NCBI GenBank assembly: GCA_964419565.1
Contig: CAYQPW010000001.1
Coordinates: 88,754-152,753, forward strand
Source of the DNA: an uncultured bacterium
Lineage (GTDB): Bacteria; Hydrothermota; Tepidihabitantia; SM23-42
Reading direction: 5' to 3'
DNA length: 64,000 nucleotides
The notes under the pieces were generated by a model that was not told the origin of the DNA, ran no database searches, and saw nothing but the letters and a program-made list of their open reading frames with translations. Below, piece by piece: positions 36,799 through 57,014 of the stretch. Position numbers and translations under genes: made by a program. Within the stretch, counting starts at the first letter, position 1, and every line of letters begins with the position of its first letter.

Positions 36799-36818
36799 TG
36801 TTGGTAAGAGGAGGAAAC

Positions 36819-39701: not shown

Positions 39702-42667
39702 TGAAATTATTCAAGATACTTCTTTTATTCTTATTCGTATTTTGTAATCTCTATGCACAGATGACACGTGTTTCAATGGACAATGGACGGTTGGTGCCTC
39801 AGCTGCTCAATTACCAGGGCTATCTTACTGACACGACTGGTATTCCAATTGATGATTCGCTCGATATGACGTTTAAAATATTTGATGCCGTGTCGAGCGG
39901 TAATGAATTGTGGTCAGAAACACAGACAAGTGTCCCGATCGAGCGCGGCGTGTTCAGTATCATACTCGGTGAGATAACACCGATCCCGGACAGTGTCTTT
40001 GACGATTTTTCAAACACATGGTTCGAGCTAACACTTGAAGGACCTCAGACCTTAGCGCCCCGCACGCGCATCACGTCAGTAGGGTATGCATATACTTCAA
40101 CGTATTCGGACACGGCTGAGTTCGCAAGAGTGGGCGCAGCAGATAATGACTGGATTGTCAACAGTAATCGTCTTTACCCGGCTGGTGACTATGGGTTAGC
40201 GATGCGCAGCAGTAATGTCATGTGGGGGTCAAATCTCAATACCCACGTGAATTTTGGCGTGTCCTGTACGACCGGTACCCTCTTACAGAACTATAATTAC
40301 TGCACTATCGGCGGTGGCTATCGTAATCGTGCAACACATTCTGCGGCGACCGTTGCCGGTGGATATCAGAATACCGCGGCTTATCATTATGCTGCGGTGG
40401 GCGGTGGGCGTTACAATTATAATGCCGGTTACTATTCAGTTATTCCAGGCGGTTATGCAGATACGATCACCGCGACCGGTGATTATTCGTATCTTTTCGG
40501 TATCAACAGCAACCTCACCCAGGATTCGACCTTCATGGTCGACATGCCGCACATTTGGTTTGGGAATGAAACAGGCGGGTATGAATTTCCAACATCAGAT
40601 GGTTTGGCTGATCAGACATTAATCACAGATGGCAGCGGACAGCTGAATTGGTCTGATGTGCCGTCATCAAGCAACTGGTCAGTTACCGATTCTGTGCTTT
40701 ATACAAATAATTACTGGGGTCTGACCCGCGGTGGTGCTGATAATGCTCTTTATGGTGATTTTGCTTATAGCCATGTCAATTTAGGAGTTGCATGCACGAC
40801 TGGATATTACCTAAGTAATAATTCATACTGCACTGTCAGCGGTGGATATCAAAACTCCGCCAGTGACTGGTACGCCACAATTGGCGGAGGTTTACAGAAC
40901 ATTGCGAGTGACTGGTACGCGACGGTCGGTGGAGGTTTACAGAATACGGCCAGTAATAACTACACGACCATAGGCGGCGGAGACAATAACCAGGCACTTG
41001 AACAGTATGCAACGATCGGCGGCGGATGGAATAACACTGCTGGTGGTTTATTTTCCACTATTGGCGGCGGTTATTGGAACACTGCAATTGGTGATTATGC
41101 AGCGATCTGCGGAGGACAGAGTAATCTGGCTGCTGGCGATTATGCAACTGTAGTTGGCGGTCAAAATAACCTTGCTGATAGCGCCTATACGACTATTGGC
41201 GGTGGTTATTATAATAAGGCGAGTGGTGATTATGCAGCAGTGAGCGGCGGTTATTATAGCCATGCTCTGGGCTATTGTACATATGTTGGTGGTGGTTATC
41301 GTAATAATGCAGTTGGTTATTGTGCGTTTGTAGGCGGCGGTTATGCGGATACAACGCGCGCAGATTATGGCGGTGTTGCATCGGGTTGGCATAATACTGC
41401 AGGAGATGCTTTGACTGATACCGCTGCGTTTGTGGGCGGCGGGAAAGATAATGCAGCTTTTGCACCGTATGCGAATGTCGGAGGTGGCTATGCAGATACT
41501 GTATGGGCTTTATATGGCGGTGTTGCATCGGGTTGGCATAATACTGCAGGAGATGCTTTGACTGATACCGCCGCGTTTGTGGGCGGCGGCAAAGATAATG
41601 CAGCGCTTGCACCGTATGCGAATGTTGCTGGTGGATATGCAAATACGGTTCAGGCACTGTATGGCGGTGTTGCATCGGGTTGGCATAATATAGCAGGAGA
41701 TGCTTCTAATGATACCGCTGCGTTTGTCGGCGGCGGGAAAGATAATGCCGCGTTTGCGCCGTATGCGAATGTCGGAGGCGGCTATGCAGATACTGTTTAT
41801 GCAGTGTACGGTGGTATTGGTTCTGGATACAGTAATCTGGCCGGCGATGAGACGGCAGATACTGCAGCAGCGGTTGCAGGTGGCTTGAACAATTCAGCTA
41901 CGGGTAAATATTCGTTTGTCGGCGGCGGTCGCGATAACATCGCCAGTGCAGATTACGCATCAGTAGCCAGTGGGTTTCAGAATACGGCCAGCGGCAATTA
42001 TGCGGTAGTAGCCGGCGGTTATGATAATACTGCTTCATCCTATGCGAGTTTTGCGGCGAATTCCGGCTCTCAAGCCTCCCACAATATGTCCGCAGCGTTT
42101 ACTATTAGCCATACCACAGCACCACTTCAAGTCCGCGCAATGGCGTTTTCCACAGGGACATTGGTTTTCTCGATGGATCATCCGTCCGATCCGATGAACA
42201 AGATACTCAATCAACATGCTGTGGGGTCTTCTGAGGCAATATTACTATATAATGGTACTGCGACTATTGAAGAAAATGGTCGTGTCGAGGTATTGCTTCC
42301 TGATTATTTTGAAAAGATCAATAGGAATGCCTGTATCCAGATAACCGGTGTCGGTTCTTCTGAGGTCGTGTTTGTTGCCGAAGATTTAAAAGGAAATTCA
42401 TTTATTATCGGCGGTCAGCCCGGCACAAAAGTCTACTGGACTGTGACCGGCGAGCGTACGGATATCCACGCCGAGATCGCGCGCACCCTGACCCCGGTCG
42501 TCCAGGAAAAGACCGGTGATTTGATCGGACACTCGCTCGACGATGATGCGCTCATCGGTATTTACGATCGCCTGCAGCAAGAAAAACCTGGTATGTTTTC
42601 ATTTAAAACTGAAGAAGGCCGCCGTGTCCACGAACAGAGTAAACAAACTGTAGAGAGTAGGGAGTAG
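39701..42667 (+). CDS. large secreted beta-roll repeat protein, paralog 2 (~988 aa), tandem to paralog 1
   Basis: ATG at 39701 overlaps the upstream stop (TAATG). Signal peptide MKLFKILLLFLFVFCNLYAQ. Same architecture; N- and C-domains ~75% identical to paralog 1. Confidence 0.8.
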   Translation: MKLFKILLLFLFVFCNLYAQMTRVSMDNGRLVPQLLNYQGYLTDTTGIPIDDSLDMTFKIFDAVSSGNELWSETQTSVPIERGVFSIILGEITPIPDSVFDDFSNTWFELTLEGPQTLAPRTRITSVGYAYTSTYSDTAEFARVGAADNDWIVNSNRLYPAGDYGLAMRSSNVMWGSNLNTHVNFGVSCTTGTLLQNYNYCTIGGGYRNRATHSAATVAGGYQNTAAYHYAAVGGGRYNYNAGYYSVIPGGYADTITATGDYSYLFGINSNLTQDSTFMVDMPHIWFGNETGGYEFPTSDGLADQTLITDGSGQLNWSDVPSSSNWSVTDSVLYTNNYWGLTRGGADNALYGDFAYSHVNLGVACTTGYYLSNNSYCTVSGGYQNSASDWYATIGGGLQNIASDWYATVGGGLQNTASNNYTTIGGGDNNQALEQYATIGGGWNNTAGGLFSTIGGGYWNTAIGDYAAICGGQSNLAAGDYATVVGGQNNLADSAYTTIGGGYYNKASGDYAAVSGGYYSHALGYCTYVGGGYRNNAVGYCAFVGGGYADTTRADYGGVASGWHNTAGDALTDTAAFVGGGKDNAAFAPYANVGGGYADTVWALYGGVASGWHNTAGDALTDTAAFVGGGKDNAALAPYANVAGGYANTVQALYGGVASGWHNIAGDASNDTAAFVGGGKDNAAFAPYANVGGGYADTVYAVYGGIGSGYSNLAGDETADTAAAVAGGLNNSATGKYSFVGGGRDNIASADYASVASGFQNTASGNYAVVAGGYDNTASSYASFAANSGSQASHNMSAAFTISHTTAPLQVRAMAFSTGTLVFSMDHPSDPMNKILNQHAVGSSEAILLYNGTATIEENGRVEVLLPDYFEKINRNACIQITGVGSSEVVFVAEDLKGNSFIIGGQPGTKVYWTVTGERTDIHAEIARTLTPVVQEKTGDLIGHSLDDDALIGIYDRLQQEKPGMFSFKTEEGRRVHEQSKQTVESRE

Positions 42668-43889: not shown

Positions 43890-44060
43890 ACTCAATTACA
43901 TAATTACTATTCTCTTACGAACACGAATAACGATTCACGAATACGATTTTATTTGGTCTTTTTAGTTATTGTGGTTTTTCTCTTTGCTCTTTACTCATTA
44001 CGCCATACGCTTTTGCTGCTTACTGCCTACTTCTTAGTGTCTGCTGTCCGTTTACTCAGT
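43890..44060 (+). repeat. mosaic intergenic repeat element, copy 5
   Basis: ...tacgaacacgaataacgattcacgaatacgatt... and ...ttgctgcttactgcctacttcttagtgtctgctgtc, related to 30850-30870 and 42938-42973. Confidence 0.5.
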
Positions 44061-45424
44061 TTATGCCGGTACATCGACCGGTCAGCAGTCGACAGTAATT
44101 TATATACTGTTTGTGGTTTTTCCGGGTTGTAATGAGCCCAGCCGATGCTCAGCCTGAGGGAGAAAGGCAAGCTTGTTTTTTTGTTGAATGAATCAAGGCT
44201 TGCCAGTAATCGAATATAAAGGTCTTGAGCACGGGTTTCCCCGGTTTCTGAGGTTAGTACAACGAATTCATCACCACCGATGCGGGCTATTATGTCGGAT
44301 CTACGGAACGTCGCTTTAAGTATGTTAGTTGTTTCGATCAAAGCCCGGTCTCCGATCGCATGACCGAATTTATCGTTTATCGCTTTGAGATTATCGAGGT
44401 CGGTAAAAAGCAGGATCACCGCTTTTCTCTTGGATACGGCGATCTTTAATTGATGTTCGGCCAGGGTCATAAAACCGCGCCGGTTGTACAGTCCGGTAAG
44501 ATCATCGACCAGAGAAAGAGCACGCAGCTGGTCTTCTTTCTGCTTACGCTCGGTAATGTCTTCGATCACACCATCTATCCATTTTACCTGACCTCTGTCA
44601 TCAGACTGCGCGCGCGCATAGATCGATACCCATATTGGTTTTCCGTCTTTTTTCTCCATTAAAATTTCACGATTTTTAACGAATTTCTTACGCTTCAATT
44701 CTTTTATCAACCCGAGTCGATCCTTACGATCATGATATAATTCCTGAACCTTGATTTTCAGCAGCTCTTTCAATGATTTGTAGCCAAACATCTTGACCAG
44801 GGCAGGGTTAACCTGCACAAAATGGCCTTCAGGATCGCCCGTAGTTCGAAAGACACCGACATTTACGTTTTCAACGATCGTCCTGAATTTGATATCGATA
44901 TCACGAAGAGCCAATTCCGCAGTTTTATGTTCAGTAATGTCCTGTGTAAGGATGACGATCTGCTCGACCTTTTTCCTTTTGTTCTGGATCGCATAATAAT
45001 ACTGTGATATCCACATCGTTGCGTTCGTCTTTTGATTGTGCACTTTGAGTTCAGGCAGGAATAATTCACCGCCGTGTTCAAAAATACGCCTGAATTTTGA
45101 TATTTTGCCCTTGAGGTAAGGATATCTTTTGCTCAACGGCAGATACCTGGTTTTTCTGTCTTGTATCATGACCTGCCGCGTTGTAAGCCCCCATAATTTT
45201 TTCCAGGCTTTATTGACGAAGAGAAGATCTCCAAAGCGATCGCGGATAGAGATGCCGACCGGTGAATGGTCGAACAATGCGTGGTTAAGTACTTTACTTT
45301 TACGCAGCATTTCTTTGAGTTGTAGGTTCACGGTTTCGAGCTTACTAACGCGCTGGTTTGACCTACGCTGTTTTTTCTTTTTTAATCGATTCTTGCTTTT
45401 TCGTTTACTAGTTTTTTTCTTCAT
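44027..45424 (-). CDS. PAS-PAS-GGDEF diguanylate cyclase with Lys/Arg-rich N-terminus
   Basis: C-terminal GGDEF domain with ...RIGGDEFVVL..., two PAS-like regions, N-terminal MKKKTSKRKSKNRLKKKKQRR. Confidence 0.8.
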   Translation of the reverse strand: MKKKTSKRKSKNRLKKKKQRRSNQRVSKLETVNLQLKEMLRKSKVLNHALFDHSPVGISIRDRFGDLLFVNKAWKKLWGLTTRQVMIQDRKTRYLPLSKRYPYLKGKISKFRRIFEHGGELFLPELKVHNQKTNATMWISQYYYAIQNKRKKVEQIVILTQDITEHKTAELALRDIDIKFRTIVENVNVGVFRTTGDPEGHFVQVNPALVKMFGYKSLKELLKIKVQELYHDRKDRLGLIKELKRKKFVKNREILMEKKDGKPIWVSIYARAQSDDRGQVKWIDGVIEDITERKQKEDQLRALSLVDDLTGLYNRRGFMTLAEHQLKIAVSKRKAVILLFTDLDNLKAINDKFGHAIGDRALIETTNILKATFRRSDIIARIGGDEFVVLTSETGETRAQDLYIRLLASLDSFNKKTSLPFSLRLSIGWAHYNPEKPQTVYKLLSTADRSMYRHKLSKRTADTKK

Positions 45425-45712
45425 TACACGCTAAGGCTAGGTAATAATACACATATATTAAAAAAAAGTCAAGGGAAAATATCACCATATCAGTAAACCT
45501 CCTCACATCATAGACTTAAGTCTAATTATATCGATTTATTATAATTTGTCAACACCCATGTTGATTATTGTTTATTTCTTGTAGTCGCCCGATTCATCGG
45601 GTAATGTCTGATAAATCAGACGACTACAGTCTATTTTTGGTTTTTTTAATCTTTTTATTTACCTGATTTTCTGATAGCCTGATCTGCATGATCAAAACGT
45701 TTTTGTGTAAAA

Positions 45713-45787: not shown

Positions 45788-47629
45788 CTATTTCAATAAC
45801 ATCTTGCATATACCTTCGACTGCTATCTTGCCGTCGGCGATCGCGGTTACTGCGTCGAGGTTACGATTAACAATGTCTCCACCGGCAAAGATACGGGCGA
45901 TCGATGTCTGTCCATTTTCGTCGACGCGGACCTTGCCTCGATCAAATTGTAATTCGTCCTTAAGGACTTTTGGCAAATACGAGAAATCAGCCATCTGTCC
46001 GACCGCCTCGATGATCATATCGCCGTTAATCGTTTTATTTTTTTCTTCATAGAATGTCGGGGCAAATCTTCCTTGTTCATCGAACACGGATTTTACCGCC
46101 TTGCATTCGAGTCCGATAATTTTTTTGTTTTTTAATAGAATTTTTTTCGGACCCCATGATACATTGAACAAAACTCCTTCTTCTTTGGCTTCGGTGTGTT
46201 CTTCCTCGGTCGCCGGGATGATATCCCACGATTCAAGACAGACAATATTGACCGAGGTTTTCTCACCAGGATATTGCATGTGTTGTAATCTAACGCAGGT
46301 CCGGGCAACGTCCATTGCCACATTACCACCGCCGATAATAATGATATTTTTACCGACTTTGATTTTCTTGCCGGATTTGACCTTGGTCAGAAAATCAATG
46401 GCCTGGGGAGCCATTTGCTCGTTCTCGAGTTTGATGTACCTTCCTTTGCACATGCCGGTGCTGATGTATACGGCATCGGCATTATCATAGATAGCCTCGA
46501 ATTTTATATCCTTGCCTACCTCGGTATTGAATTTAAATTTAACACCTAATGACTCTATATAATGTATGTCCCGGTCAATAATATCCAACGGCAGCCGGTA
46601 TTGCGGCGGTCCTATTCTCAGCATACCGCCGCCGCCGGGCAGGGAATCGTAGACAGTGACCCGATGACCTTTGAGTCTTAAGAAATGTGCGACTGTCAGA
46701 CCGGATGCTCCAGCACCGATCACCGCGATTTTTTTAGCTGTATCCGAAGCGACTTTTGGCTTTAATGCCTCTCTGAAATCGACAACCTCATCAGCGACAA
46801 ATCTCTTGAGCCATCTGATTGCCAGGGGCTTGCCGCGTATGCCAATAGAGCAGGCATCCTCGCAATGCTTCATGCATATCCTGCCGCATATTGAAGGGAT
46901 CGGATTGTCTTCAAATACTTTTCTGAGCGATTCTTCGTAGTTGCCCTGGGCGATCGCTTTGATATAGTCTGATATTTTGAGGTGAGCCGGGCAGGCTTCT
47001 TCACAGAGCTTACACTCTAAGCAGCGCGCTGCTTCAGCCCGTGCTTTTTCCTCAGAATATCCCAAAACCATTTCAACAAAAGATTTTTTCCGATCGGCTG
47101 GTTCGATCACGTCCATGAAGACCCGTTCGGGTTCGAACAAAGCGAATTTTAGATCGGAAGTAAATCCTTCATAATCCTTTTTTCGGTGGGTGAGACTGGC
47201 TTTGAAAATAGAATATTTCTCAGCGGGTAAGAAGTGCTCATTATCTGATTTCTGATCTTTGGCAAGTAAGGTAAAACTTTTCGTGTCGAAGTGGATATGA
47301 AAATAATCTCTTGATAACCTCAGGCAGCCGGGCGGACATACATCGACACATAAACCGCAAAAGCAGCACCGTCCATAATCGATTTGAGGGCGTTCATTTT
47401 TCTCGCCTGGTTTTGGCTTAATTCCAGGGATTTCGATCATGGTGATCGCCTCATTCGGGCATATGTCAAGGCAGTTGCCGCAGCCCGTACATTTTTCCCA
47501 ATCGTTGAGATGGAGGCCCCGGTATCTTTCAGCCGGTTCCTTGGGTTCGAATGGGTATCTCAGTGTTTTCGGTTTTTTAAAAAGATATCTGATCGCTTTA
47601 AAAGGACTAAAGATATTTGGTTTGCCCAT
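45788..47629 (-). CDS. fusion of NuoI/MbxN-like 2x[4Fe-4S] ferredoxin subunit with GltD/SudA-like NAD(P)H-dependent FAD/FeS oxidoreductase (613 aa)
   Basis: N-terminal ...LRYPFEP.EPAERYRGLHLNDWEKCTGCGNCLDICPNEAI...YGRCCFCGLCVDVCPPG is NuoI-type. From ~aa 190: ...CLECKLCEEACPAH... and ...ICGRICMKHCEDAC... (GltD FeS motifs), KIAVIGAGASGLTVAHFL (FAD GxGxxG), IIIIGGGNVAMDVART (NAD(P)H site). Last gene of the cluster, 10 nt after the nuoD-like gene. Confidence 0.8.
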   Translation of the reverse strand: MGKPNIFSPFKAIRYLFKKPKTLRYPFEPKEPAERYRGLHLNDWEKCTGCGNCLDICPNEAITMIEIPGIKPKPGEKNERPQIDYGRCCFCGLCVDVCPPGCLRLSRDYFHIHFDTKSFTLLAKDQKSDNEHFLPAEKYSIFKASLTHRKKDYEGFTSDLKFALFEPERVFMDVIEPADRKKSFVEMVLGYSEEKARAEAARCLECKLCEEACPAHLKISDYIKAIAQGNYEESLRKVFEDNPIPSICGRICMKHCEDACSIGIRGKPLAIRWLKRFVADEVVDFREALKPKVASDTAKKIAVIGAGASGLTVAHFLRLKGHRVTVYDSLPGGGGMLRIGPPQYRLPLDIIDRDIHYIESLGVKFKFNTEVGKDIKFEAIYDNADAVYISTGMCKGRYIKLENEQMAPQAIDFLTKVKSGKKIKVGKNIIIIGGGNVAMDVARTCVRLQHMQYPGEKTSVNIVCLESWDIIPATEEEHTEAKEEGVLFNVSWGPKKILLKNKKIIGLECKAVKSVFDEQGRFAPTFYEEKNKTINGDMIIEAVGQMADFSYLPKVLKDELQFDRGKVRVDENGQTSIARIFAGGDIVNRNLDAVTAIADGKIAVEGICKMLLK

Positions 47630-47639
47630 TCACTACCTC

Positions 47640-48737
47640 CTAGCGGTCTATCTCAGGAGCAACCACATACAGGCTTATCATAATGTTACCGACATCAGCG
47701 ATACTGGCATTCTTCAGTAGCTTTTCCAAAATTACGAGTCCGTGCGTGTATGACGGTGTTCTGAAGTGCACCCGGTAAGGTTTGTCTCCGCCGTCGCTCA
47801 CCAGGTAAAGCCCGAGTTCTCCCCGTGATGACTCGACTCTCACATATGCATCGCCCGGGGGAATGGTCCATTTGAACGGGTTGGGGATCCGGTTATATAC
47901 TTCACCTTTGGGTAGATTATCAAGCAATTTGAATATCATGTGAACACTTTCGATCATTTCATCCCTGATTACCCATACCCGGGAATAGGCATCGCCATCT
48001 TCTCTTATCGGCACCTCAAAATCAACTTTCTGATAGGCAGCATACGGCTCAATTTTTCTGATATCGGATTTTAATCCGGTAGCGCGTATTACCTGGCCGA
48101 CCCCACCCATTTTTATCGCTTCTGCTTGCGTGATTTTGCCGATATCTTTGGCGCGTTCGTAAAACAGACGGTTATTAAAGAATGTCGCGTCATAGTCAGG
48201 CACACATTTGCCAATAGAGTGGAGTGTAGATACCATCCTGTCCTCAAAGCCCCGGGGAAAATCACGACGTACGCCGCCGGGCCAGATGTAGATGTGATAA
48301 ACCCGGCCGCCGGTGAGCTCTTCGAACAGATCGAGGATAAGGTCGCGGTGATACATCGCCCACTGGGCGACCGTATCAAAGCCAAGCATATTGGCATATG
48401 CCCACAGACCAAAAAGGTGCGAGCCGACGCGGGCAAGTTCAAGGTAAATGCTTCTGATATGGTGCGCTCTTTCAGGGACTTCGATGCCAGCGAGTTTTTC
48501 CACAGCCATCGAATACACCATTTCCATATGATCGGGCTCCACGACATTTATTCGGCACACCAGAGGGAAATTCTGGATCCAGGTTCGATACTCCATGAGT
48601 TTTTCAAAACCCCGATGAAGATATCCAGGATTGGCGGTCGCTTGAATGATACGGTCACCTTCGACTTTGAGGGTAATACTGAAGTTTCCTACCATGCCAA
48701 GATGTTGAGGACCAAAAAAGAGTTCCAGTTCTCTCAT
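47640..48737 (-). CDS. NuoD / Mbx-L-like 49-kDa-family subunit lacking NiFe-ligand cysteines
   Basis: ...FGPQHLGMVG... and ...NPGYLHRGFEKL... are NuoD-like. No RxCGxCxxxH near the N-terminus. The C-terminus ...SLYVVAPEIDR has no DPCxxCxxH/R. Confidence 0.8.
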   Translation of the reverse strand: MRELELFFGPQHLGMVGNFSITLKVEGDRIIQATANPGYLHRGFEKLMEYRTWIQNFPLVCRINVVEPDHMEMVYSMAVEKLAGIEVPERAHHIRSIYLELARVGSHLFGLWAYANMLGFDTVAQWAMYHRDLILDLFEELTGGRVYHIYIWPGGVRRDFPRGFEDRMVSTLHSIGKCVPDYDATFFNNRLFYERAKDIGKITQAEAIKMGGVGQVIRATGLKSDIRKIEPYAAYQKVDFEVPIREDGDAYSRVWVIRDEMIESVHMIFKLLDNLPKGEVYNRIPNPFKWTIPPGDAYVRVESSRGELGLYLVSDGGDKPYRVHFRTPSYTHGLVILEKLLKNASIADVGNIMISLYVVAPEIDR

Positions 48738-49219
48738 TTGTCCTCCTTGACAAAGGGGATCTCATCGAAATACTCTTTCACATACTTTCTTGTATCGAAG
48801 TCCTTACGAAAAGGCGGTATTTCATAATCTCTTTCCAAAAAGAGCGGGATCTGTCTGGGGTGCCCTTTAAAATCAATGCCGAAGAGTTCGTGTATTTCCC
48901 TTTCATAGGGTTCGGCATTTTCGAAAATATCGATAACAGTCCTGAAATCTAACTTTTTGCGCGGGATATTAGTTTTTAGAATAATATGATCGTTTTCAGA
49001 ATAGGAACTAAGGATATACACCAATTCCAGTTTTTCCTTATCGATCCAGTCCACGCATGAGATCAGGGCAAGATGAATGTATCCTTGATCCTTTAATGAT
49101 TTCAGAACATCTCCTGTACTATCCATGGGCACTGAGATAACAAGCCGACCGTTTTTTTCAGTCGATATTTCAATCCCGCGAAAGATCGCCTTCAGTTTCC
49201 TTTTTATTGAATTATCCAT
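48734..49219 (-). CDS. NuoC / Mbx-K-like 30-kDa-family subunit
   Basis: 161 aa, ...ERDYEIPPFRKD... Overlaps its neighbours by 4 and 8 nt. Confidence 0.7.
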   Translation of the reverse strand: MDNSIKRKLKAIFRGIEISTEKNGRLVISVPMDSTGDVLKSLKDQGYIHLALISCVDWIDKEKLELVYILSSYSENDHIILKTNIPRKKLDFRTVIDIFENAEPYEREIHELFGIDFKGHPRQIPLFLERDYEIPPFRKDFDTRKYVKEYFDEIPFVKEDK

Positions 49220-49778
49220 TTCGCTTATTTATGTTATATAGGGGGGGCCAGGCGAGTTTACCCAATGCCCTTTCCTGGTTTTTCCGGTAGTACGTGTATT
49301 TTTCTCGGTACTTTTTGTAGCCATTAGCCATTTCCTTATCGATCAGGGTCCAGAGGTGAGTAACCGCGATGAAGATTGCCTCTGGTCTTGGCATGCACCC
49401 AGCGATCCATCCATCAACAGGAATATATTTATCAAGATGTTTTATGGTATTGTAGGAATCCCAGTACATGCCGCCATTTATCGGGCAGGACCCAAAGCCG
49501 ACCGTGTATTTTGGCTCAGGCATCTGCTCGTACGTTCTGATGATCGCCTTGAGTGTTTTCAAAGAAACATACCCGGTGATCAAGAACAAGTTTGCCTGTC
49601 TCGGCGAGCCCACGGGAATTACTCCGAATCGTTCAGCATCCCATCTGGTCGTTATCACCGGCGGCACTTCAATGATCCCGCAGCCCGTGCAAAAATAAAC
49701 CGCCCACAAGGAATATTTGTTACCCATTTTTTGTGGTTGTTTGAACCACTTTGTAAGCACATTTCTATCCATAGCCAC
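49212..49778 (-). CDS. NuoB / Mbx-J-like 20-kDa (PSST) subunit carrying the N2-type [4Fe-4S] site
   Basis: ...FCTGCGIIE..., ...GSCPINGG..., ...GCMPRPEA... cysteine motifs. 188 aa. Confidence 0.75.
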   Translation of the reverse strand: MAMDRNVLTKWFKQPQKMGNKYSLWAVYFCTGCGIIEVPPVITTRWDAERFGVIPVGSPRQANLFLITGYVSLKTLKAIIRTYEQMPEPKYTVGFGSCPINGGMYWDSYNTIKHLDKYIPVDGWIAGCMPRPEAIFIAVTHLWTLIDKEMANGYKKYREKYTYYRKNQERALGKLAWPPLYNINKRNG

Positions 49779-50655
49779 CCCATATGTATGTGATGATCAA
49801 TCCAGCCAGGGCAAGAATTGTTGGCCAGGTCCAATTAAAACGGATCGCCTGTTCAATTCTAAACCTCGGAAAGACCGCGTTAATGAAAACTCCAAGGACA
49901 AACACGATCACCATTTTGAGCAGGAATGTAAAAGGCTCGCCTGCACCGCCTAAGAATAAATTTACAAACAGCGCGATCACGATAAAGCGACGGAAGGCGT
50001 GTTCAATATAATAAAGTGCTAAGAACTTACCGCTGTATTCCACTTTCAATCCAGAAGATATTTCCTGGGGCGCTTCGACCATATCGAATGGCCTGATGCC
50101 GAGCATTGCCGGTAAGATCAGAAAATAAGCGATGCCGGCTAAGGGAAGGGAAACGATACCCCAACTTGATGCTCTTTGAAAATGAACCAGGTTGACGAGT
50201 GATATCGTCCGGTAATAGAACATTAGCGTCAGCACGATCAATAGAAAGGGCACCTCATAGCTCAAGGCGAGAAGCATTTTGCGGGAAATACCGATACTGA
50301 TGTTAGGATTGGAACCACTGCCCCCGGACAAGGCGATGCCGATCGGAGCAAGGAGCATGAGGTAAAGGACCACGAGTAACCCGCCTGAAATATTGAGCGG
50401 GCATATATTGCCGATCGGAATAAACAATAATGTCACGACACTACCGGCCAATGATAACAACAATCCCAGTTCAAATATCACCCCGTGGGAAACGCTTTTT
50501 TGCAAGAACAGCTTTATTATATCGATTACCGGTTGATAGAGCGGCGGACCATAGCGCCAGTGTATCCGGGCCATTATTATTCTGAACAACCCCATAAAGA
50601 ATATTCCGATAACGAATCCGATGACCGGTGAGAGTATAAAGCCTGCCACACCCAT
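49765..50655 (-). CDS. NuoH / Mbx-M-like membrane subunit
   Basis: Start moved to the ATG at 50655 (4 nt after the upstream stop; the track ORF began at 50763 inside the upstream gene). ...RIHWRYGPPLYQPVIDIIKLF... 8 TM helices. Confidence 0.7.
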   Translation of the reverse strand: MGVAGFILSPVIGFVIGIFFMGLFRIIMARIHWRYGPPLYQPVIDIIKLFLQKSVSHGVIFELGLLLSLAGSVVTLLFIPIGNICPLNISGGLLVVLYLMLLAPIGIALSGGSGSNPNISIGISRKMLLALSYEVPFLLIVLTLMFYYRTISLVNLVHFQRASSWGIVSLPLAGIAYFLILPAMLGIRPFDMVEAPQEISSGLKVEYSGKFLALYYIEHAFRRFIVIALFVNLFLGGAGEPFTFLLKMVIVFVLGVFINAVFPRFRIEQAIRFNWTWPTILALAGLIITYIWGGYG

Positions 50656-50659
50656 GATA

Positions 50660-52528
50660 TTACCAAGGCCTCCAGATAAGCTGCACACAGATGAGCACCG
50701 CAAGAAATAACATAATATAGATGACGTAATTACCCAAATCTCCGGTATACATACGCCTGACAAATTCAGCGAGCTTTTCGCTAATTTTGCCGATCCACAC
50801 GTAGAACTGGTCTATTCTATCCTTTAACCACGGTTTGACCATTGTGTAAAAAGGATTATAAAAATCCACGGTATAATGGTATTTATCTGCAGGTACATAT
50901 GCACCTGCAGCATAGGAGTTATCCTGGGATACCAGCACCGATTTACCGCCGGTGCGGAATATTATGTAGACGATAAAAACTAATACTATGATAGCAGCAA
51001 ATATATTGATCGTATTCAGAGTGCCTGTTTCCGAGGCAATGCCCCAAAGATTGACACCCAGTGATTCGAATCCCAAAGAGATGCCGATCGAGTTGATGAT
51101 ATTCAATCCGAGACCGGGAAGGATGCCAAATATAATAGTGACTGCACACAATATTACCATTGGCAGCCGCATGCTAAAAGGAGCACTCTTTATATTTTTA
51201 TGCTTTTCCGAGAGCTGCCCCAGAAACATGTTGTGTAATAGTTTGTAGATCGCCAGTAAACTCCCCCACGTTCCGATCAAAGCCGCAAAAGCAAGGAAAG
51301 GAGAGCCGTTAAGAATCAGTGTTTTATAAATCAACCACTTGGAGACAAACCCATTCGTAAGGGGGATGCCGATCAAACCGCATGCCCCTACCAGGGTGGC
51401 GATAAAGGTAACCGGCATTTTATTTGCCAGGCCGCCTAAGGAATTTAGATCCCTGACCCCGCCGGTCCGGAATTCGACCGCACCGACCGCAAGAAAGAGG
51501 AGTGCTTTGAATATCGCATGGTTGAAAAAATGGAATATTCCGCCGGCTAGTCCCAGACTTGTACCAAAGGCGATGCCCAGGATAATGTAGCCGCATTGTC
51601 CAATACTCGACCAGGCAAGCAATTTCTTGGCATCGTCTTGAAAAACCGCGATGAAGTTGGGGATGACAATGGTGATGCCCGCGAGCAAACATAGAATATA
51701 ATGAAAACTCAGTCGCCCCTGCCCCAGATAGAGAAATATCCGCGACCCGAGCATTATATAGAATATCATGAGAAAACCAAAGGTTCCCATCTTCGCGAGC
51801 ATGCCAGAAAGCAAAGCAGTAAAGGGACTGGGTGATTCAGTATAAGCCGAAGGTACCCAGACGTGAAGCGGCATGAGGCCATTTTTTATTCCGAAAGCAA
51901 TGCAGAACATGATAAGGATGAAGACTATATAACCACGAGGAGCGCTGGCAATAAAACCTGCGATCTGCGAAATATCGAATGTTCCGAAATTCCCATATAT
52001 TGAAAGGATCCCCACTAACATGCATAACGAGCCGGCAAGAGATATTATAATGTATTTCAAACCTGCCGCCAGGGCCGGACCTTTATTATAGCTTACCAGC
52101 ACAAAAATACTCCAGGACATGATCTCCCAGAAAACGTAGAATGAGATCAGGTCACCGGACATGACAATACCGAGCATGCTGGTGCTTACCAATAGCATCA
52201 TCATATAGTAAAGACCGAGTCTTGTTTTATCTTTCATGTAGCTCAATGAGAAGATTATTGACATGGTGCTCAGTACGGTGATGGTAATGGCAAAGAGCCA
52301 GGAAAGATTATTGATCCTCAAGATCAGGGGATGGTCAAAGAACCTGGCGTACACTAATTCTTTTCCATAACCGTGTAGTCCTGCTACCATGAGTACGAGC
52401 ACTGAAGAGATAAAAATGGCAAAACCATTGCGCACATTTTGCGAGACCTTACCTAAAAGATAGGTCAGAAATGCGCCTCCCAGGGCGACGATGAGCAGGT
52501 TATTGAATATGATATCAGGGTAAGACAC
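50660..52528 (-). CDS. MrpA/MrpD-like (NuoL/M/N family) antiporter-type membrane subunit (Mbx-H'-like), 622 aa
   Basis: Polytopic protein of the NuoL/M/N proton-pumping family. Overlaps the upstream gene by 14 nt. Confidence 0.75.
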   Translation of the reverse strand: MSYPDIIFNNLLIVALGGAFLTYLLGKVSQNVRNGFAIFISSVLVLMVAGLHGYGKELVYARFFDHPLILRINNLSWLFAITITVLSTMSIIFSLSYMKDKTRLGLYYMMMLLVSTSMLGIVMSGDLISFYVFWEIMSWSIFVLVSYNKGPALAAGLKYIIISLAGSLCMLVGILSIYGNFGTFDISQIAGFIASAPRGYIVFILIMFCIAFGIKNGLMPLHVWVPSAYTESPSPFTALLSGMLAKMGTFGFLMIFYIMLGSRIFLYLGQGRLSFHYILCLLAGITIVIPNFIAVFQDDAKKLLAWSSIGQCGYIILGIAFGTSLGLAGGIFHFFNHAIFKALLFLAVGAVEFRTGGVRDLNSLGGLANKMPVTFIATLVGACGLIGIPLTNGFVSKWLIYKTLILNGSPFLAFAALIGTWGSLLAIYKLLHNMFLGQLSEKHKNIKSAPFSMRLPMVILCAVTIIFGILPGLGLNIINSIGISLGFESLGVNLWGIASETGTLNTINIFAAIIVLVFIVYIIFRTGGKSVLVSQDNSYAAGAYVPADKYHYTVDFYNPFYTMVKPWLKDRIDQFYVWIGKISEKLAEFVRRMYTGDLGNYVIYIMLFLAVLICVQLIWRPW

Positions 52529-53990
52529 TTCTGATATATTCTCCTCTGTCCAGGAGCATACCTGCAGCTGAGTTGAGTATTTTGCTGAGTACTTCTGGAT
52601 ATATGCCGATACCGACTACTAGTACCATTAAAATGCATATCGGGATAAGAACTGCGAGTGATGTATTCTTTCGTGTTTGGTCAGGATCTTTGTTGCTTTC
52701 TTTGAAGTAAATGATTTGGATCACTTTAAGGAAATAAGCACATTCAATGACTGTCGCTAGCAATACGAATCCAAGAAGAATAGTCAGCAAAAGATCATGT
52801 TGGACCAGTGTTGCTTCGACAATGAGAAATTTTGACGCAAATCCCACAAAAGGGGGAAAACCGATGAGCGAAAAAACGCCGATGACAAAAGCAAGGGAAA
52901 TCACCGGCAGTTTTTTCCCCATACCTGCCAGGGAATCGATCTCCATCGAACCCGAGCGATAGATCATATACCCGACCGTAAGAAAGAGCAGCGCTTTAGC
53001 CAGTGCGTGGGAGGTGATCTGAAACAGTGCTCCTTTTATTCCGAGAGCACTGGCAAGGCCAAATGCAAAGATAATAAGACCGATCTGGCCGGTCGATGAA
53101 TAAGCGAGCATTCTTTTTATGTTGTTCTGGCGGAAAGCGGCCAATTCTCCCACGAGCAGGGTGATCAAGCCTATAAACAAAAGGAAATGAAGAAGGCTGC
53201 TTGCTCCGAATAGCGTAAAGATGATCCTCATGATCGAGTAGACCCCCATCTTTATCGCGATGCTGGATAGGATTGCCGAGATCGAGGAAGGTGCCGAAGA
53301 GTGCGCATCAGGTAGCCAGGCATTGAGCGGGATTATTGCTGCTTCGACGCCGAATCCAGTGATCAAAAGAGCCAGCGGTAAAAATGCGGATAACGGTGTG
53401 ATCGAGTGAATATGTTTCGCAATGTGCGCCATATTAAGCGTTCCAAAATAGCCATAGAGCAATGCAATACCCATGAGGATCAATCCCGAGCCAACCGTGC
53501 CCTGGATCAAATATTTTATGCCTGCTTCAATACCTGGTTTGTCCTGGTTATATGCAACGAGCGCGTACGATGAGATGCAGAGGATCTCAAAGAACACGAA
53601 TAGATTAAATATGTCACCGGTAAGAACGATCCCGGTTGCACCAACCAGGAGCAAGAGATACAACATGTGATAACTTTGGGTGGCGCCTTTTTTGATATAA
53701 TCGACAGCGTAAATGGAGATCATCAATCCGACCAGGGCGATGAGCACGGCCAAGAACACGGCCAGAGGATCGACCATCAGGTTTATGCCGAAAGGCGCGG
53801 GAAACCCACCCAGGCTGATAATGATCGGTGCTTGGAGTACCCGGGGGATAAGGGTGATAGCGGCAGCAAGATTAAAAATCATCCCCAGAATAGGGATATA
53901 TTTTGTGATTTTTTTCGAAATAAAGCCAAACAAAGGTATGGTGAAAGTTAAGCCCAAGGGTATGACTATTAAGAGTACGGGGTTTACCAT
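52515..53990 (-). CDS. MrpD-like (NuoM/N family) antiporter-type membrane subunit (Mbx-H-like), 491 aa
   Basis: Same family as the preceding gene. Confidence 0.75.
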   Translation of the reverse strand: MVNPVLLIVIPLGLTFTIPLFGFISKKITKYIPILGMIFNLAAAITLIPRVLQAPIIISLGGFPAPFGINLMVDPLAVFLAVLIALVGLMISIYAVDYIKKGATQSYHMLYLLLLVGATGIVLTGDIFNLFVFFEILCISSYALVAYNQDKPGIEAGIKYLIQGTVGSGLILMGIALLYGYFGTLNMAHIAKHIHSITPLSAFLPLALLITGFGVEAAIIPLNAWLPDAHSSAPSSISAILSSIAIKMGVYSIMRIIFTLFGASSLLHFLLFIGLITLLVGELAAFRQNNIKRMLAYSSTGQIGLIIFAFGLASALGIKGALFQITSHALAKALLFLTVGYMIYRSGSMEIDSLAGMGKKLPVISLAFVIGVFSLIGFPPFVGFASKFLIVEATLVQHDLLLTILLGFVLLATVIECAYFLKVIQIIYFKESNKDPDQTRKNTSLAVLIPICILMVLVVGIGIYPEVLSKILNSAAGMLLDRGEYIRSVLP

Positions 53991-54325
53991 TTTAATTCTT
54001 TGATCTTACGCACATCGAGTGTACCATAATGACGGTACAATCTTATGACCAGGGAAAGAGCAAGGGCAAGGGTCGCGACACCGATTACGATCGCCGTGAG
54101 AACCAGAGCCTGGGGGATCGGGTCAACCATGAGTGACGGATTGAGTTTGTCCTTTGAAAAAATCGGAGCGGTGCCCCCTTTTATGTAACCGGTGCATACA
54201 AGAAGTATAAAAATCCCGGTTTCGAATATATCGAGTCCGATAATGACTTTGATCAAATTTCTCTTGGTGAGAACGATATACAACCCGATAATTATTAAAC
54301 CGATCGCTCCGATATAATAGATCAT
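53984..54325 (-). CDS. MrpC / NuoK-like small membrane subunit (Mbx-G-like)
   Basis: 113 aa, ...LTKRNLIKVIIGLDIFETGIFILLVCTGY...PQALVLTAIVIG... Confidence 0.7.
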   Translation of the reverse strand: MIYYIGAIGLIIIGLYIVLTKRNLIKVIIGLDIFETGIFILLVCTGYIKGGTAPIFSKDKLNPSLMVDPIPQALVLTAIVIGVATLALALSLVIRLYRHYGTLDVRKIKELKW

Positions 54326-55014
54326 GGTTCCTCTATTAACCTGTCCAGAACTCCGGTCAGTTCAGCACCGACTTTAAAGCCGATCGCAACATAGATGATC
54401 GGAATGATCCCGGCGCTGAACAACTCATTGGGCAGTCCTTTGGGCAAGTAATTAGCAAGAAAGTAACCGCTGTATAGCAGTCCCAAGAGGCCGATCACCA
54501 CAAAAACAAGCCCGCCAATAGATTCAGTTATTTTCGCAGCACTTTTATTGATGCCGCGCCATTTCCAGCATCCCAGCATGGTCAGCAGAAAACCCGAGGC
54601 AATTATCGCTCCGCCCTGGAATCCTCCGCCTGGAGTTAAGTGACCGTGGATGAAAATATAGGCGCCGAAAAGCATGGTCAACGGGAATAAGAATCTGCAC
54701 CCCGTGTAAAGGATCAAACTGCTTTTCCTGCCTTCTTTTTTCGGTTTTTTTTCTTCCTGATGAAGTACTGCGGACAGACCGATCGCCGCGAGAAATAGAA
54801 CTGTCACTTCACCGAGCGTGTCGAAACCGCGATAATTAACGACCACTGAAGTGACGATGTTGGTGGCTCCGGTATCTTTGATCCCGTTGTCGATATAGTA
54901 TTCTCTTACCTTGCTTAATGATCGACCGAATGGTATTTCTGTTAAACAAAAAATTACTCCGCTTAAAAGTATTGCCAGCAGGATAAGGCTAACTATTTTT
55001 CTCATCGTCCTCAT
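54322..55014 (-). CDS. MrpB-like membrane subunit (Mbx-F-like) with C-terminal extension
   Basis: ...GATNIVTSVVVNYRGFDTLGEVTVLFLAAIG... 230 aa. Confidence 0.65.
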   Translation of the reverse strand: MRTMRKIVSLILLAILLSGVIFCLTEIPFGRSLSKVREYYIDNGIKDTGATNIVTSVVVNYRGFDTLGEVTVLFLAAIGLSAVLHQEEKKPKKEGRKSSLILYTGCRFLFPLTMLFGAYIFIHGHLTPGGGFQGGAIIASGFLLTMLGCWKWRGINKSAAKITESIGGLVFVVIGLLGLLYSGYFLANYLPKGLPNELFSAGIIPIIYVAIGFKVGAELTGVLDRLIEEP

Positions 55015-55240
55015 GCCTTTTTGTCTTTTTTAAAGCTATGACAAATATCGCCACCGTAAGTGCCGCGCCAATCGAGGCTTCAGCCATGGCAACATCTGGA
55101 GCGTTGAGCAGGAAGAACAATATCGCCGCGATAAAACTGACGAAACCAGCGGCGATCACCGCATTTAACAGGTTTTTAAAAGTCCCGGCGCTGACTGCAG
55201 CGACCAGCATCACCAGAACAAGAATTATTTCAAGAATCAT
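54989..55240 (-). CDS. small membrane subunit, DUF4040 / MrpA-C-terminal-domain-like (Mbx-D-like)
   Basis: 83 aa, ...FFLLNAPDVAMAEASIGAALTVAIFVIAL... Confidence 0.55.
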   Translation of the reverse strand: MILEIILVLVMLVAAVSAGTFKNLLNAVIAAGFVSFIAAILFFLLNAPDVAMAEASIGAALTVAIFVIALKKTKRHEDDEKNS

Positions 55241-55559
55241 TTTCTTCCTTGCAAAGATCTTTTGATTGGTTCACTTTTGTTTTGTCGCAAAGAGAAACAC
55301 CGGACAGGCAGGAAGCCCGACCGAGCGCGTGGCTGGATATTGGATTCGTTAATAAAACAAATACCGCAATGACCAGAGTCGTCCAGAACCAGGAAGGTTC
55401 GAGTATGCCGACGCCGATAATCGTACAGAATGCTCCCAGGGTGGTGCATTTCGTGCCCGCCTGTAATCGGTTATACACGTCGGGCATCCGGTATACGCCG
55501 AGCGAACCAAGGAATAAAAATAACACGCCAAAGCCGGTCACGAACCAGCCAATGATCAT
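55230..55559 (-). CDS. MrpG-like subunit (Mbx-C-like)
   Basis: ...GSLGVYRMPDVYNRLQAGTKCTTLG... matches the MnhG/PhaG family. Confidence 0.7.
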   Translation of the reverse strand: MIIGWFVTGFGVLFLFLGSLGVYRMPDVYNRLQAGTKCTTLGAFCTIIGVGILEPSWFWTTLVIAVFVLLTNPISSHALGRASCLSGVSLCDKTKVNQSKDLCKEENDS

Positions 55560-55810
55560 AGAGTTCCTCCTTCAAGATACCGGGCAATGGCTACTGAACC
55601 GACAAAAGTCAAGACCGCATATACCAATGATACATCGAGATAGACCTGCCTCTGGAGTATGAAGCCGATCAAAACTAAGAGGGCGGTCGTGACGGTCACT
55701 GCCGTATCAAGGGCAACGGCACGATCAGGAGCAGTCGGTCCTTTTAGCATTCTTAAAAGACAGAGTACTACACCACATCCGATGATCACCAGATAGATAG
55801 TTCCTATCAT
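55556..55810 (-). CDS. MrpF-like subunit (Mbx-B-like)
   Basis: ...RMLKGPTAPDRAVALDT...LDVSLVYAVLTFVGSVAIARYLE... Confidence 0.7.
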   Translation of the reverse strand: MIGTIYLVIIGCGVVLCLLRMLKGPTAPDRAVALDTAVTVTTALLVLIGFILQRQVYLDVSLVYAVLTFVGSVAIARYLEGGTL

Positions 55811-56277
55811 TGAAATATAACCTTTAAAATTTTCTCGAATTTTTCGCCAATAATTTTTGTCGTTGTATCGATATCGACTGCTTTGACATCTATCCAGTGG
55901 ATGAGCATTTTATCTTCCTGAATATCAAGTGTAAATGTTCCCGGTGTAAGGGTGATGGAGTTGGCAAGGACTGTCTTTGCGATATCTGATTTAAGTTCCG
56001 TGTGTATGATAACGACCCCGGGGTTTATCGGGAGCGCGGGATGTATTACGCGCAGCGCTACGTCAAAATTTGCTTTTATTATTTCGAAAAAAAGAACTGC
56101 GATATACCAAAGAAAATATATAACGCGTTTTGGATTTATTGCAGGAAAACCGAGTCCGAGGTAGAATTCATTGGCAAAGAGAGCAATAAGAAATGCCACG
56201 ATTGCGCCGGTCCATAGTTTCTGATAATGGAATGATGTTGTAAGCAAAAGCCATAAAAAGAGTAAGAAAAAGAACAT
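55807..56277 (-). CDS. MrpE-like subunit (Mbx-A-like); first gene of the cluster
   Basis: 156 aa, N-terminal TM helices. 4-nt overlap with mrpF-like. Confidence 0.6.
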   Translation of the reverse strand: MFFFLLFLWLLLTTSFHYQKLWTGAIVAFLIALFANEFYLGLGFPAINPKRVIYFLWYIAVLFFEIIKANFDVALRVIHPALPINPGVVIIHTELKSDIAKTVLANSITLTPGTFTLDIQEDKMLIHWIDVKAVDIDTTTKIIGEKFEKILKVIFQ

Positions 56278-56396: not shown

Positions 56397-56425
56397 CATT
56401 ATATGCATAATATTATATTTGTCAA
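56397..56425 (-). promoter_or_regulatory. candidate sigma-70 promoter (TTGACA-N16-TATAAT on minus strand) for the mrp/nuo-like operon
   Basis: Reverse complement reads cacTTGACAaatataatattatgcaTATAATgg, ~120 nt upstream of the mrpE-like ATG. Coordinates +/-2 nt. Confidence 0.4.
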
Positions 56426-56508: not shown

Positions 56509-56537
56509 TTGACATGGATTTAAAATTCAATAATAAT
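56509..56537 (+). promoter_or_regulatory. candidate sigma-70 promoter TTGACA-N17-AATAAT for the CGGC-domain gene
   Basis: TTGACA 56509-56514. The ATG at 56514 used by the ORF track lies inside this -35 box, which supports the downstream start at 56571. Confidence 0.35.
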
Positions 56538-56570
56538 AGTCAACATCGAAGTAAAACAGGGGGTGTTTTA

Positions 56571-57014
56571 ATGGAAAAGATAAATATCGGAATAATAATA
56601 TGTCATCGTTACCATACCTGCGCTGGTGGCAAGTGCTTGCGCGCGGCCCGTAACCGTGAGGGCGCATTCAGTGTGTACCGTAATAAAGACATAGAGATCG
56701 TCGGGTACACCTCCTGCAACGGCTGCCCAGGCGGCAATATCGAGTATGCGCCTGAAGAGATGAAGAAAAACGGCGCAACGGTTATACATCTTGCAACCGG
56801 CCTGGTAGTCGGCTACCCGCCCTGTCCATACATCGCGCATTTTAGGAATTTTATCAAGGAAAAGTTTGATATGGATGTGGTTATCGGTACACATCCGATC
56901 CCGCAGAAATACTATATAACGCATACAGCCTTAAAAACATGGAATACACCAGAATGGAAAGAGTTTATCAAGCCGACCTTGGTCGATCAAGCTCTTCGTC
57001 AAGCTTACGATTGA
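56571..57014 (+). CDS. CGGC-domain protein (predicted metal-binding, ~147 aa)
   Basis: MEKINIGIIICHRYHTCAGGKCL...YTSCNGCPGG... cysteine pattern. Divergent from the mbx-like operon. Confidence 0.6.
   Translation: MEKINIGIIICHRYHTCAGGKCLRAARNREGAFSVYRNKDIEIVGYTSCNGCPGGNIEYAPEEMKKNGATVIHLATGLVVGYPPCPYIAHFRNFIKEKFDMDVVIGTHPIPQKYYITHTALKTWNTPEWKEFIKPTLVDQALRQAYD

Follow-up and report, generated by a model that had tools for sequence, protein, structure and literature searches.

An MBS/Mbx-type operon in an uncultured bacterium with a fused NAD(P)H flavoprotein and a large subunit lacking all four NiFe-ligand cysteines

The stretch of DNA analysed here (the window) covers 64,000 nucleotides (nt) of contig CAYQPW010000001.1 from an uncultured bacterium of the Hydrothermota lineage and contains, on its minus strand, an operon of 13 genes running from position 56277 to 45788. 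The genes follow the order A-B-C-D-E-G-H-H'-M-J-K-L-N, matching the mbx/mbs order, and are joined by overlaps of 4 to 26 nt or separated by gaps of at most 10 nt. A longer overlap of 104 nt between H' and M is an artefact of taking the longest open reading frame (ORF) start, as gene callers begin M later and give a protein of 296 amino acids (aa). Our analysis centres on gene 12 of the operon, which encodes the large subunit L (47640–48737, ATG start, 365 aa; ORF confirmed). It is well supported by the comparisons described here that L represents a derived member of the MbsL lineage, fully devoid of NiFe-ligand cysteines, within an operon of the MBS/Mbx type.

L was aligned with MbhL (6cfw_L), Escherichia coli HycE (MG1655), Nqo4 (2fug_4) and MbsL (6u8y_L). 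The reference sequences other than HycE were taken from Protein Data Bank (PDB) alignments and, because the extracted numbering reproduces the published residue numbers, the mapping of residues between these proteins is valid. The NiFe ligands of MbhL (C68, C71, C374 and C377) correspond to N64, E67, V359 and E362 in L, and no cysteine pair falls at the NiFe ligand positions. C61 and C178 are the only cysteines in L, and a CxxC is absent; neither the N-terminal RxCGxCxxxH nor the C-terminal DPCxxCxxH/R motif of group 4 [NiFe]-hydrogenases is found in it. The Asp of the DPC motif, D372 in MbhL, is replaced by Y357 and the proton-transfer residue E21 by G17. The NiFeSe_Hases family (PF00374) gives no match to L, the sole Pfam match being to Complex1_49kDa (PF00346, 246 bits). 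A first-pass annotation, which had been made from the letters of this stretch, stated that the NiFe-binding motifs are missing from L and that the cluster should not be called a membrane-bound hydrogenase. All the strings quoted there, GPQH (residues 9–12), GYLHRGFEKL (38–47), FPLVCRINV (57–65) and the C-terminal SLYVVAPEIDR (355–365), are present, and both statements agree with the loss of the four NiFe cysteines and of the proton-transfer Glu. The conclusion that L would bind no NiFe centre and would not be a hydrogenase subunit is supported by these comparisons.

The residues that contact the quinone in complex I were located in the same way. In an ungapped alignment (offset +22 to 2fug_4) the quinone head-group ligands H38 and Y87 of Nqo4 correspond to V16 and V65 of L, so the quinone-pocket residues to which the first-pass annotation had pointed are not present. 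The position of the complex I redox-Bohr His is kept (H148). Compared with MbsL, C85 has become N64, C385 has become V359, the Asp of the DPC motif Y357 and L82 C61, and the beta1-beta2 loop of L is one residue longer. N64 thereby occupies the position of C68 in MbhL, C85 in MbsL and D86 in Nqo4. Among 81 sequences of the window clade, drawn from many phyla, there is no variation at C61, N64, Y357 or E362; V16 is kept in 79, V65 and E67 are kept in 80 each, and all 81 have V, T or I at position 359. As the replacements are conserved across these 81 family sequences, loss of the NiFe ligands is not a sequencing accident.

The search of L against PDB sequences gave MbsL of Pyrococcus furiosus as the best match (6u8y_L, 351.6 bits, E 4.7e-104), aligned end to end. 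Complex I 49 kDa subunits score about 183–247 bits, MbhL 139 and HycE 102. By BLASTP, L shares 47% of its residues with MbsL in a full-length alignment; the identity is 39% with Nqo4, 30% with MbhL and 29% with HycE, and lies between 36 and 39% for complex I 49 kDa/NuoD-type proteins. An AlphaFold model of L (pLDDT 90.3) was built from an alignment of 48 sequences which included MbsL relatives. With this predicted structure, Foldseek placed 6u8y_L at rank 1 with TM-scores of 0.95/0.93 and a root-mean-square deviation of 2.1 Å. Complex I subunits reached query-normalised TM-scores of 0.92–0.95 but target-normalised scores of only 0.77–0.91, because they carry extra segments; the query-normalised score does not separate MbsL from complex I, whereas the target-normalised score and the rank do. 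In a rough neighbour-joining tree (BLOSUM62 distances, no support values), used for grouping and not for branching order, the window clade forms a tight long branch inside the MbsL-type group. The statement of the first-pass annotation that L is not MbsL-like fails on homology, MbsL being the best match in both sequence and fold, and holds only in that the vestigial C85 and C385 are absent. Its NuoD-type motifs, GPQH and GYLHRGFEKL, turn out not to be NuoD-specific, since MbsL has GPQH and G[YF]LHRGFEKL.

Outside the window clade, no full-length protein of our comparison library (clustered at 50% identity) exceeds 47% identity to L, and the names Zestosphaera and Heimdallarchaeota are found among the nearest relatives at 45–47%. 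The residue patterns of the library split cleanly into four types, namely hydrogenase (E..C-G-C..D-C-C), NuoD (H..D-Y..D-V-E), MbsL (C-V-[DE]..D-C-[DE]) and window (V..C..N-V-E..Y-V-E). Both vestigial cysteines, at the C85 and C385 positions, are present in all of the 120 closest MbsL relatives (120/120), which include Thermococcales, Desulfurococcales, gammaproteobacterial tubeworm symbionts and Chromatiales, and the Asp is present in almost all. The extra Cys61 already occurs in a subgroup of MbsL relatives that are 50–55% identical to the window L. According to the literature, the first and third NiFe cysteines are retained by NuoD homologues of the mbx and mbx-like kinds (PMC4758237); for Thermotoga, the retention is taken from that paper only. 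Judged by its sequences, the window clade is an exception to this rule. It also appears that L never acquired the His and Tyr quinone ligands of complex I.

L scores 415 bits against the NCBIfam NuoD model NF004739, above the cut-off of 360, and 329 bits against TIGR01962, below the cut-off of 459. In every copy with a source-given name, L is labelled 'NADH-quinone oxidoreductase subunit D'. Such labels arise because L passes curated family cut-offs, which is not a functional test. The description of L as NuoD-like in the first-pass annotation is therefore correct at the level of family (PF00346, NF004739) but not at the quinone site, where the ligands are V16 and V65 and where the partner subunit J has no tandem cysteines.

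The partner subunits point in the same direction as L. J matches MbsJ (6u8y_J) with 226 bits, the next match having 133, and the two proteins align without gaps over 157 residues at 61% identity. C30, C33, C98 and C128 of J are equivalent to C25, C28, C93 and C123 of MbsJ, and the F-C-T-G-C-G motif is identical. The tandem cysteines C45-C46 which hold cluster N2 in complex I NuoB/Nqo6 are absent from J; it has C30-T-G-C33 instead, and in alignment with NdhK it is C33/G34 that lie opposite the Cys-Cys pair of the quinone reducers. In MBS, catalysis has been assigned to the proximal [4Fe-4S] cluster of MbsJ, which is ligated only by C28, C93 and C123 owing to the shortened C25-x-x-C28 loop, and equivalents of Nqo4 H38/Y87 and of MbhL E21 are lacking (Yu et al., PMC7684303). 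The vestigial C85 and C385 of MbsL are conserved but dispensable, as the C85A/C385A enzyme is active (PMC7684303). The window enzyme would thus share, by its J motif, the proposed catalytic feature of MBS and would lack the features of quinone reducers, although coordination of the J cluster by three cysteines is not readable from sequence.

The operon encodes two antiporter-like subunits, H and an H' with a C-terminal extension, as does that of MBS; MBH has only one. The best match of H is MbsH (6u8y_H), and E138, E219, K250 and K393 of MbsH are kept. H330 of MbsH, which belongs to the central charged axis, is Gln in H (Q324). H' aligns over its full length with MbsH' (6u8y_X), and the pump residues E128, K217, K248, H336 and K399 are all kept. 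Because J, H, H' and N match MBS chains best and two antiporter-like subunits are present, the operon has the MBS/Mbx architecture.

The N subunit is a fusion protein. Residues 1–120 form a NuoI/MbsN-type domain with two predicted [4Fe-4S] sites, and residues 175–611 form an NfnB/GltD-type flavoprotein with predicted FAD, NAD(P)H and two more [4Fe-4S] sites. The N-terminal 110 residues score 108 bits with MbsN (6u8y_N) against at most 57 for NuoI-type subunits of complex I/NDH. The C-terminal part matches NfnB, GltD and DPD-type NADPH flavoproteins with 166–261 bits; Thermotoga maritima NfnB (4ylf_B) scores 238 bits, and NfnI-L of P. furiosus and GltD are also matched. NF010590 is matched over the full length of N with 697 bits, below the cut-off of 946, and the domains found are Fer4, Fer4_20 and Pyr_redox_2. 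The clade keeps the two NuoI-type four-Cys motifs, the further four-Cys motifs C203-C213 and C248-C260 with their eight extra cysteines, and the FAD and NAD(P) Rossmann motifs. The predicted cofactors are, therefore, FAD and four [4Fe-4S] clusters in N and one [4Fe-4S] cluster in J. An earlier study described a bacterial mbx-like operon that includes a gltD-like flavoprotein (Degli Esposti 2015, PMC4758237), and the fusion is not limited to the cysteine-less clade. The operon of a Lamellibrachia symbiont (L087) encodes a 612-aa fusion, followed by rubrerythrin, and its L keeps the cysteines. A closer relative of the window L, which has Cys61, is accompanied by a plain N of 157 aa.

A scan of one genome per species found relatives of L in at least 175 genomes, and the best 80 of these are 80–93% identical to the window L. 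The carriers belong to WOR-3, Zixibacteria, Planctomycetota, Bacteroidales, Spirochaetota, Fermentibacteria, Omnitrophota, Sumerlaeota, Elusimicrobia, Clostridia, Desulfobacteraceae and others, and many of the genomes come from sulfidic or anoxic sediments and springs. The exact L protein was found in three public read-set assemblies. The best-matching locus, in a WOR-3 metagenome-assembled genome from Zodletone spring (L006), has an L that is 93% identical and all 13 proteins at 75–93%, and on this basis a WOR-3 bacterium is the probable source of the window. Wherever the contig is long enough, the full 13-gene operon is present, including the N fusion. Across phyla (loci L006–L085 compared with the window), identity is 80–93% for L and 75–91% for J; for most other subunits it is 50–65%, with about 55% for K, 65% for N and 60% for the membrane subunits. 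Such unevenness points either to exceptionally tight constraint on the L/J site or to spread of the operon by lateral transfer. The strong conservation of L and J, together with the invariant pocket residues, argues for a specific, working active site where the two subunits meet. The idea that L is a pseudogene or has decayed was considered and rejected, L being the most conserved subunit.

In 17 related loci, the operon has an immediate neighbour of the Rex family (Put_DNA-bind_N and CoA_binding domains), encoded on the same strand. Of 30 informative loci, 11 have the Rex gene upstream; where it lies elsewhere, it is mostly found directly downstream of N. Perfect TGTGA-N6-TCACA palindromes are present upstream of gene A in two loci, L064 (−177) and L048 (−203). 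Rex de-represses its targets at high NADH. The association of the operon with Rex would suit an enzyme tied to the NAD(H) pool and speaks mildly for oxidation of NAD(P)H. Of the other flanking genes, none recurs in more than five loci. Genes for a Fer4_22 iron-sulfur protein and a FAD_binding_6+NAD_binding_1 protein follow the operon in a Zixibacteria genome (SM23_81, L083) and in a small number of further loci. This pair resembles AsrA/AsrB or the beta/gamma subunits of sulfhydrogenase, and a second NuoH-like gene is located further downstream.

The homology, residue identities, operon architecture and conservation observed above are consistent with an operon that encodes an NAD(P)H-linked, ion-pumping bacterial oxidoreductase of the Mbx/MBS type, with an L derived from the MbsL type and an electron acceptor bound at the L/J/M chamber. 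We assign this reading a probability of roughly 60%. Which way electrons flow, what accepts them and how turnover is coupled to ions we infer as follows. NAD(P)H would reduce the FAD in the NfnB/GltD-like half of N, from where electrons would pass through the two [4Fe-4S] clusters of the flavoprotein to the two NuoI-type clusters of N, then to the proximal cluster of J and finally to the acceptor in the L/J/M chamber. The structure of MBS has a substrate chamber beneath the proximal [4Fe-4S] cluster of J, enclosed by L, J and the membrane anchor M. By analogy with MBS, sulfane sulfur or polysulfide would be the most plausible acceptor. Turnover would be coupled to translocation of H+ or Na+ by H, H' and the Mrp module, and the retention of nearly all MBS pump residues in H and H' supports such coupling. 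Induction of mbxA by elemental sulfur (S0), 4.4-fold, has been reported in T. maritima (PMC9431562).

Several points weigh against this proposal. The pocket is remodelled (invariant C61, N64 and Y357) relative to the MbsL relatives that keep their cysteines, so that MBS and the window complex may not share an acceptor. Transfer of electrons from NAD(P)H to polysulfide yields about 10 kJ per two electrons at standard potentials, which is little for two pump subunits. Among the 30 window ORFs outside the operon which were scanned with Pfam, no sulfur-metabolism genes were found, and the window has neither a rex gene nor a TGTGA-N6-TCACA Rex box. Finally, the Mrp-Mbx genes of the Riftia symbiont are co-expressed with the reductive tricarboxylic acid (rTCA) cycle, the direction of the complex being listed as unknown (PMC11636981). 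Such co-expression would fit reduction of ferredoxin equally well.

The main rival, which we regard as unlikely but by no means negligible, is a reversible, Rnf-like ferredoxin:NAD(P)+ oxidoreductase. Ferredoxin would exchange electrons with the NuoI-type clusters and NAD(P)+ with the fused flavoprotein, and the L/J/M chamber would serve only as a redox-driven coupling element with no diffusible substrate. The fused NAD(P)H module of N is in keeping with this arrangement, and the Rex association fits balancing of NAD(H). However, on such a path the electrons bypass the J cluster and the L pocket, yet L and J are by far the most conserved subunits and the pocket is invariant. Moreover, we know of no complex I-type enzyme that couples without chemistry at the L/J site. 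A ferredoxin:NAD(P)+ role was the original proposal for Pyrococcus Mbx and was also put forward by Degli Esposti for mbx-like operons with gltD (PMC4758237), and the rTCA cycle with which the tubeworm-symbiont complex is co-expressed is ferredoxin-dependent (PMC11636981). However, for Mbx of P. furiosus, direct reduction of sulfane has replaced the ferredoxin:NADP+ proposal (PMC7684303).

The reading implied by the first-pass annotation, an NAD(P)H:quinone oxidoreductase with a NuoD-like L and a GltD-like module in place of NuoEFG, stands only a slim chance. It would explain why L exceeds the NF004739 cut-off and why public copies carry the NuoD label; the four NiFe cysteines are all gone, as in complex I, and a new invariant Tyr (Y357) is located beside the former metal site. 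Transfer of electrons from NAD(P)H to menaquinone also provides enough energy for two pumps. However, L more than 80% identical to that of the window is found in Spirochaetota and Clostridia, and anaerobic members of these groups would commonly lack quinones. By identity and in the rough neighbour-joining tree L groups with the MbsL type and not with the NuoD type, and the valines at the Nqo4 H38 and Y87 positions recur throughout the clade. J has C-x-x-C and not the tandem Cys-Cys of quinone-reducing complexes (PMC7684303). Three independent markers (V16, V65 and the C-x-x-C of J) thus disfavour a quinone reductase. That L is still a hydrogenase, with its metal centre ligated by other residues, is effectively refuted by the sequence: the Mbh-like gene content and the hydrogenase-type C-x-x-C of the small subunit would suit it, but the only two cysteines of L lie off the four ligand positions, PF00374 is not matched, the proton-transfer Glu is missing and no hydrogenase maturation genes occur among the 30 window ORFs outside the operon that were scanned with Pfam.

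A more speculative version of the NAD(P)H-linked Mbx/MBS-type enzyme, to which we attach little weight, would make the NfnB-like flavin of N a point of bifurcation, giving a membrane-bound, ion-coupled and electron-bifurcating relative of MBS. One electron of NAD(P)H would then follow the chain from the NuoI-type domain to J and arrive at an acceptor of higher potential in the remodelled L pocket (C61, N64 and Y357), and the other would reach ferredoxin through the two [4Fe-4S] clusters of the flavoprotein. In a less radical version, N would represent an independent, non-NuoEFG module for input of NAD(P)H into a complex I-like pump with a new acceptor.

MBS is viewed as an intermediate between membrane-bound hydrogenase and complex I which keeps two of the four NiFe cysteines. 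The window clade adds an MBS-type lineage that has lost all four without gaining a quinone site and that has a built-in NAD(P)H module. On the basis of these comparisons, neither NuoD/complex I nor Mbh is an apt name for L or for the cluster. Because of the NuoD labels, metabolic reconstructions of WOR-3, Zixibacteria, Planctomycetota, Bacteroidales, Fermentibacteria and others could miscount the complex as complex I or as a hydrogenase. Operons of this kind have already been described genomically, and the value of the present analysis lies in correcting a widespread mis-annotation, in recognising complete loss of the cysteines in the MBS lineage and in drawing attention to an unusually conserved, uncharacterised enzyme. 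With L and J so highly conserved from phylum to phylum, the complex is a good target for biochemistry and cryo-EM.

Positions of all features are collected in Table 1. The promoter-like site upstream of gene A agrees with the consensus at 12 of 12 positions, and a second perfect TTGACA-N16-TATAAT site precedes the next gene downstream of the operon, which encodes a PAS-GGDEF diguanylate cyclase. Because this gene has its own perfect promoter-like site, the operon ends at the 613-aa gene. A gene for a CGGC-domain protein (PF08821) diverges from the operon promoter and is the same neighbour in an identical metagenome contig (L003). The Rfam scan of the whole window gave zero matches. Elsewhere in the window, two back-to-back ORFs of 985 and 995 aa, in which no significant Pfam domain was found, occupy the stretch with the strongest GC skew; the 995-aa ORF contains a 147-bp tandem repeat in 2.9 copies, and the two products may be surface or adhesin-like proteins. 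Genes for a DctM-type membrane protein with DUF3394 and for an NMT1_3 solute-binding protein presumably represent a TAXI-type TRAP transporter, and a malic enzyme gene is located near to them.

Table 1. Coordinates of the operon, its key codons and neighbouring features (window positions unless a related locus is named)
Feature	Position	Strand	Remarks
N subunit	45788..47629	minus	613-aa fusion; NuoI/MbsN-type domain + NfnB/GltD-type flavoprotein
L subunit	47640..48737	minus	MbsL-derived (well supported), Complex1_49kDa family, without NiFe ligands, without quinone ligands
Codons Y357..V359..E362	47652..47669	minus	C-terminal ligand region; V359 = MbhL C374/MbsL C385
Codons C61-R62-I63-N64-V65-V66-E67	48537..48557	minus	N-terminal ligand region; C61 = clade-specific invariant Cys
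Beta1-beta2 loop G9-P-Q-H-L-G-M-V16-G17	48687..48713	minus	nearly invariant in clade
K subunit (NuoC/MbsK-like)	48734..49219	minus	Pfam/NCBIfam
J subunit (NuoB/MbsJ-like)	49212..49778	minus	cysteines C30, C33, C98, C128
M subunit (NuoH/MbsM-like membrane anchor)	49765..50763	minus	
H' subunit, antiporter-like	50660..52528	minus	622 aa; Proton_antipo_M
H subunit, antiporter-like	52515..53990	minus	491 aa; Proton_antipo_M
Mrp-type module	53984..56277	minus	G (MnhC/NuoK-like), E (MbhE+MnhB), D (MbhD), C (MnhG), B (MnhF), A (MnhE)
Promoter-like site TTGACA-N16-TATAAT	56398..56425	minus	sigma-70-like, ~120 nt upstream of gene A
Second TTGACA-N16-TATAAT site	45525..45552	minus	
PAS-GGDEF diguanylate cyclase	44027..45424	minus	directly downstream of operon
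CGGC-domain protein	56514..57014	+	
985-aa and 995-aa ORFs	36744..42667	+	
147-bp tandem repeat	41366..41796		within 995-aa ORF
Malic enzyme	757..2469	+	
DctM-type membrane protein	4010..6034	minus	674 aa
NMT1_3 solute-binding protein	6048..7049	minus	
Rex gene	L064:13008..13640	+	adjoins operon
Other loci with adjoining Rex gene			L012, L017, L019, L022, L027, L038, L039, L051, L053, L054, L070, L072, L075, L078, L080, L084
Fer4_22 and FAD_binding_6+NAD_binding_1 proteins	L083:13060..14950	+	

Of the known systems, MBS, the membrane-bound sulfane sulfur reductase of P. furiosus (PDB 6U8Y), is like the window operon in having 13 subunits in the same order, with H and H' and an Mrp module; L and J are 47% and 61% identical, and equivalents of Nqo4 H38/Y87 and MbhL E21 are absent in both. 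However, the window L lacks the vestigial C85 and C385 (N64 and V359), has Y357 for the DPC Asp and contains the extra invariant C61. MBS depends on free ferredoxin, whereas the window operon has an NAD(P)H flavoprotein fused to N, and the host of the window operon is bacterial and probably mesophilic, judged only from the sampled habitats (springs and sediments). The bacterial mbx-like operons with gltD, described in Thermotoga and proteobacteria and represented here by the Lamellibrachia symbiont locus L087, share the 13-gene layout and the N fusion of about 612 aa. However, their L keeps C64, D357 and C359 (window numbering) and is only about 50% identical to the window L, and they often end with rubrerythrin, which the window operon does not have.

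MBH, the membrane-bound [NiFe] hydrogenase (PDB 6CFW), resembles the window complex in its Mrp-type membrane module, its peripheral J-K-L-N arm and the C-x-x-C of its small subunit but differs in having the four NiFe cysteines, E21 and a single antiporter-like subunit, and MbhL is 30% identical to L. With NuoD/Nqo4 of complex I, L shares the fold, the Pfam family, the loss of the four NiFe cysteines and the H148 position. However, the insertion of about 30 residues found in 49 kDa subunits is absent from L, and NuoEFG are absent from the operon. The C-terminal 440 residues of N resemble the NfnB, GltD and SudA flavoproteins (4YLF_B, 5JCA_L and 6S6S_G), with FAD, NAD(P)H and two [4Fe-4S] sites, whereas in the window this domain has no NfnA-like partner and is fused behind a NuoI-type domain in a membrane complex. 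The name Ehr serves as an umbrella for relatives of group 4 hydrogenases without Ni/Fe ligands (PMC6349859), a definition that covers the window complex. However, Ehr is a loose grouping, matched here by definition only, and the window operon is specifically of the Mrp-Mbx type.

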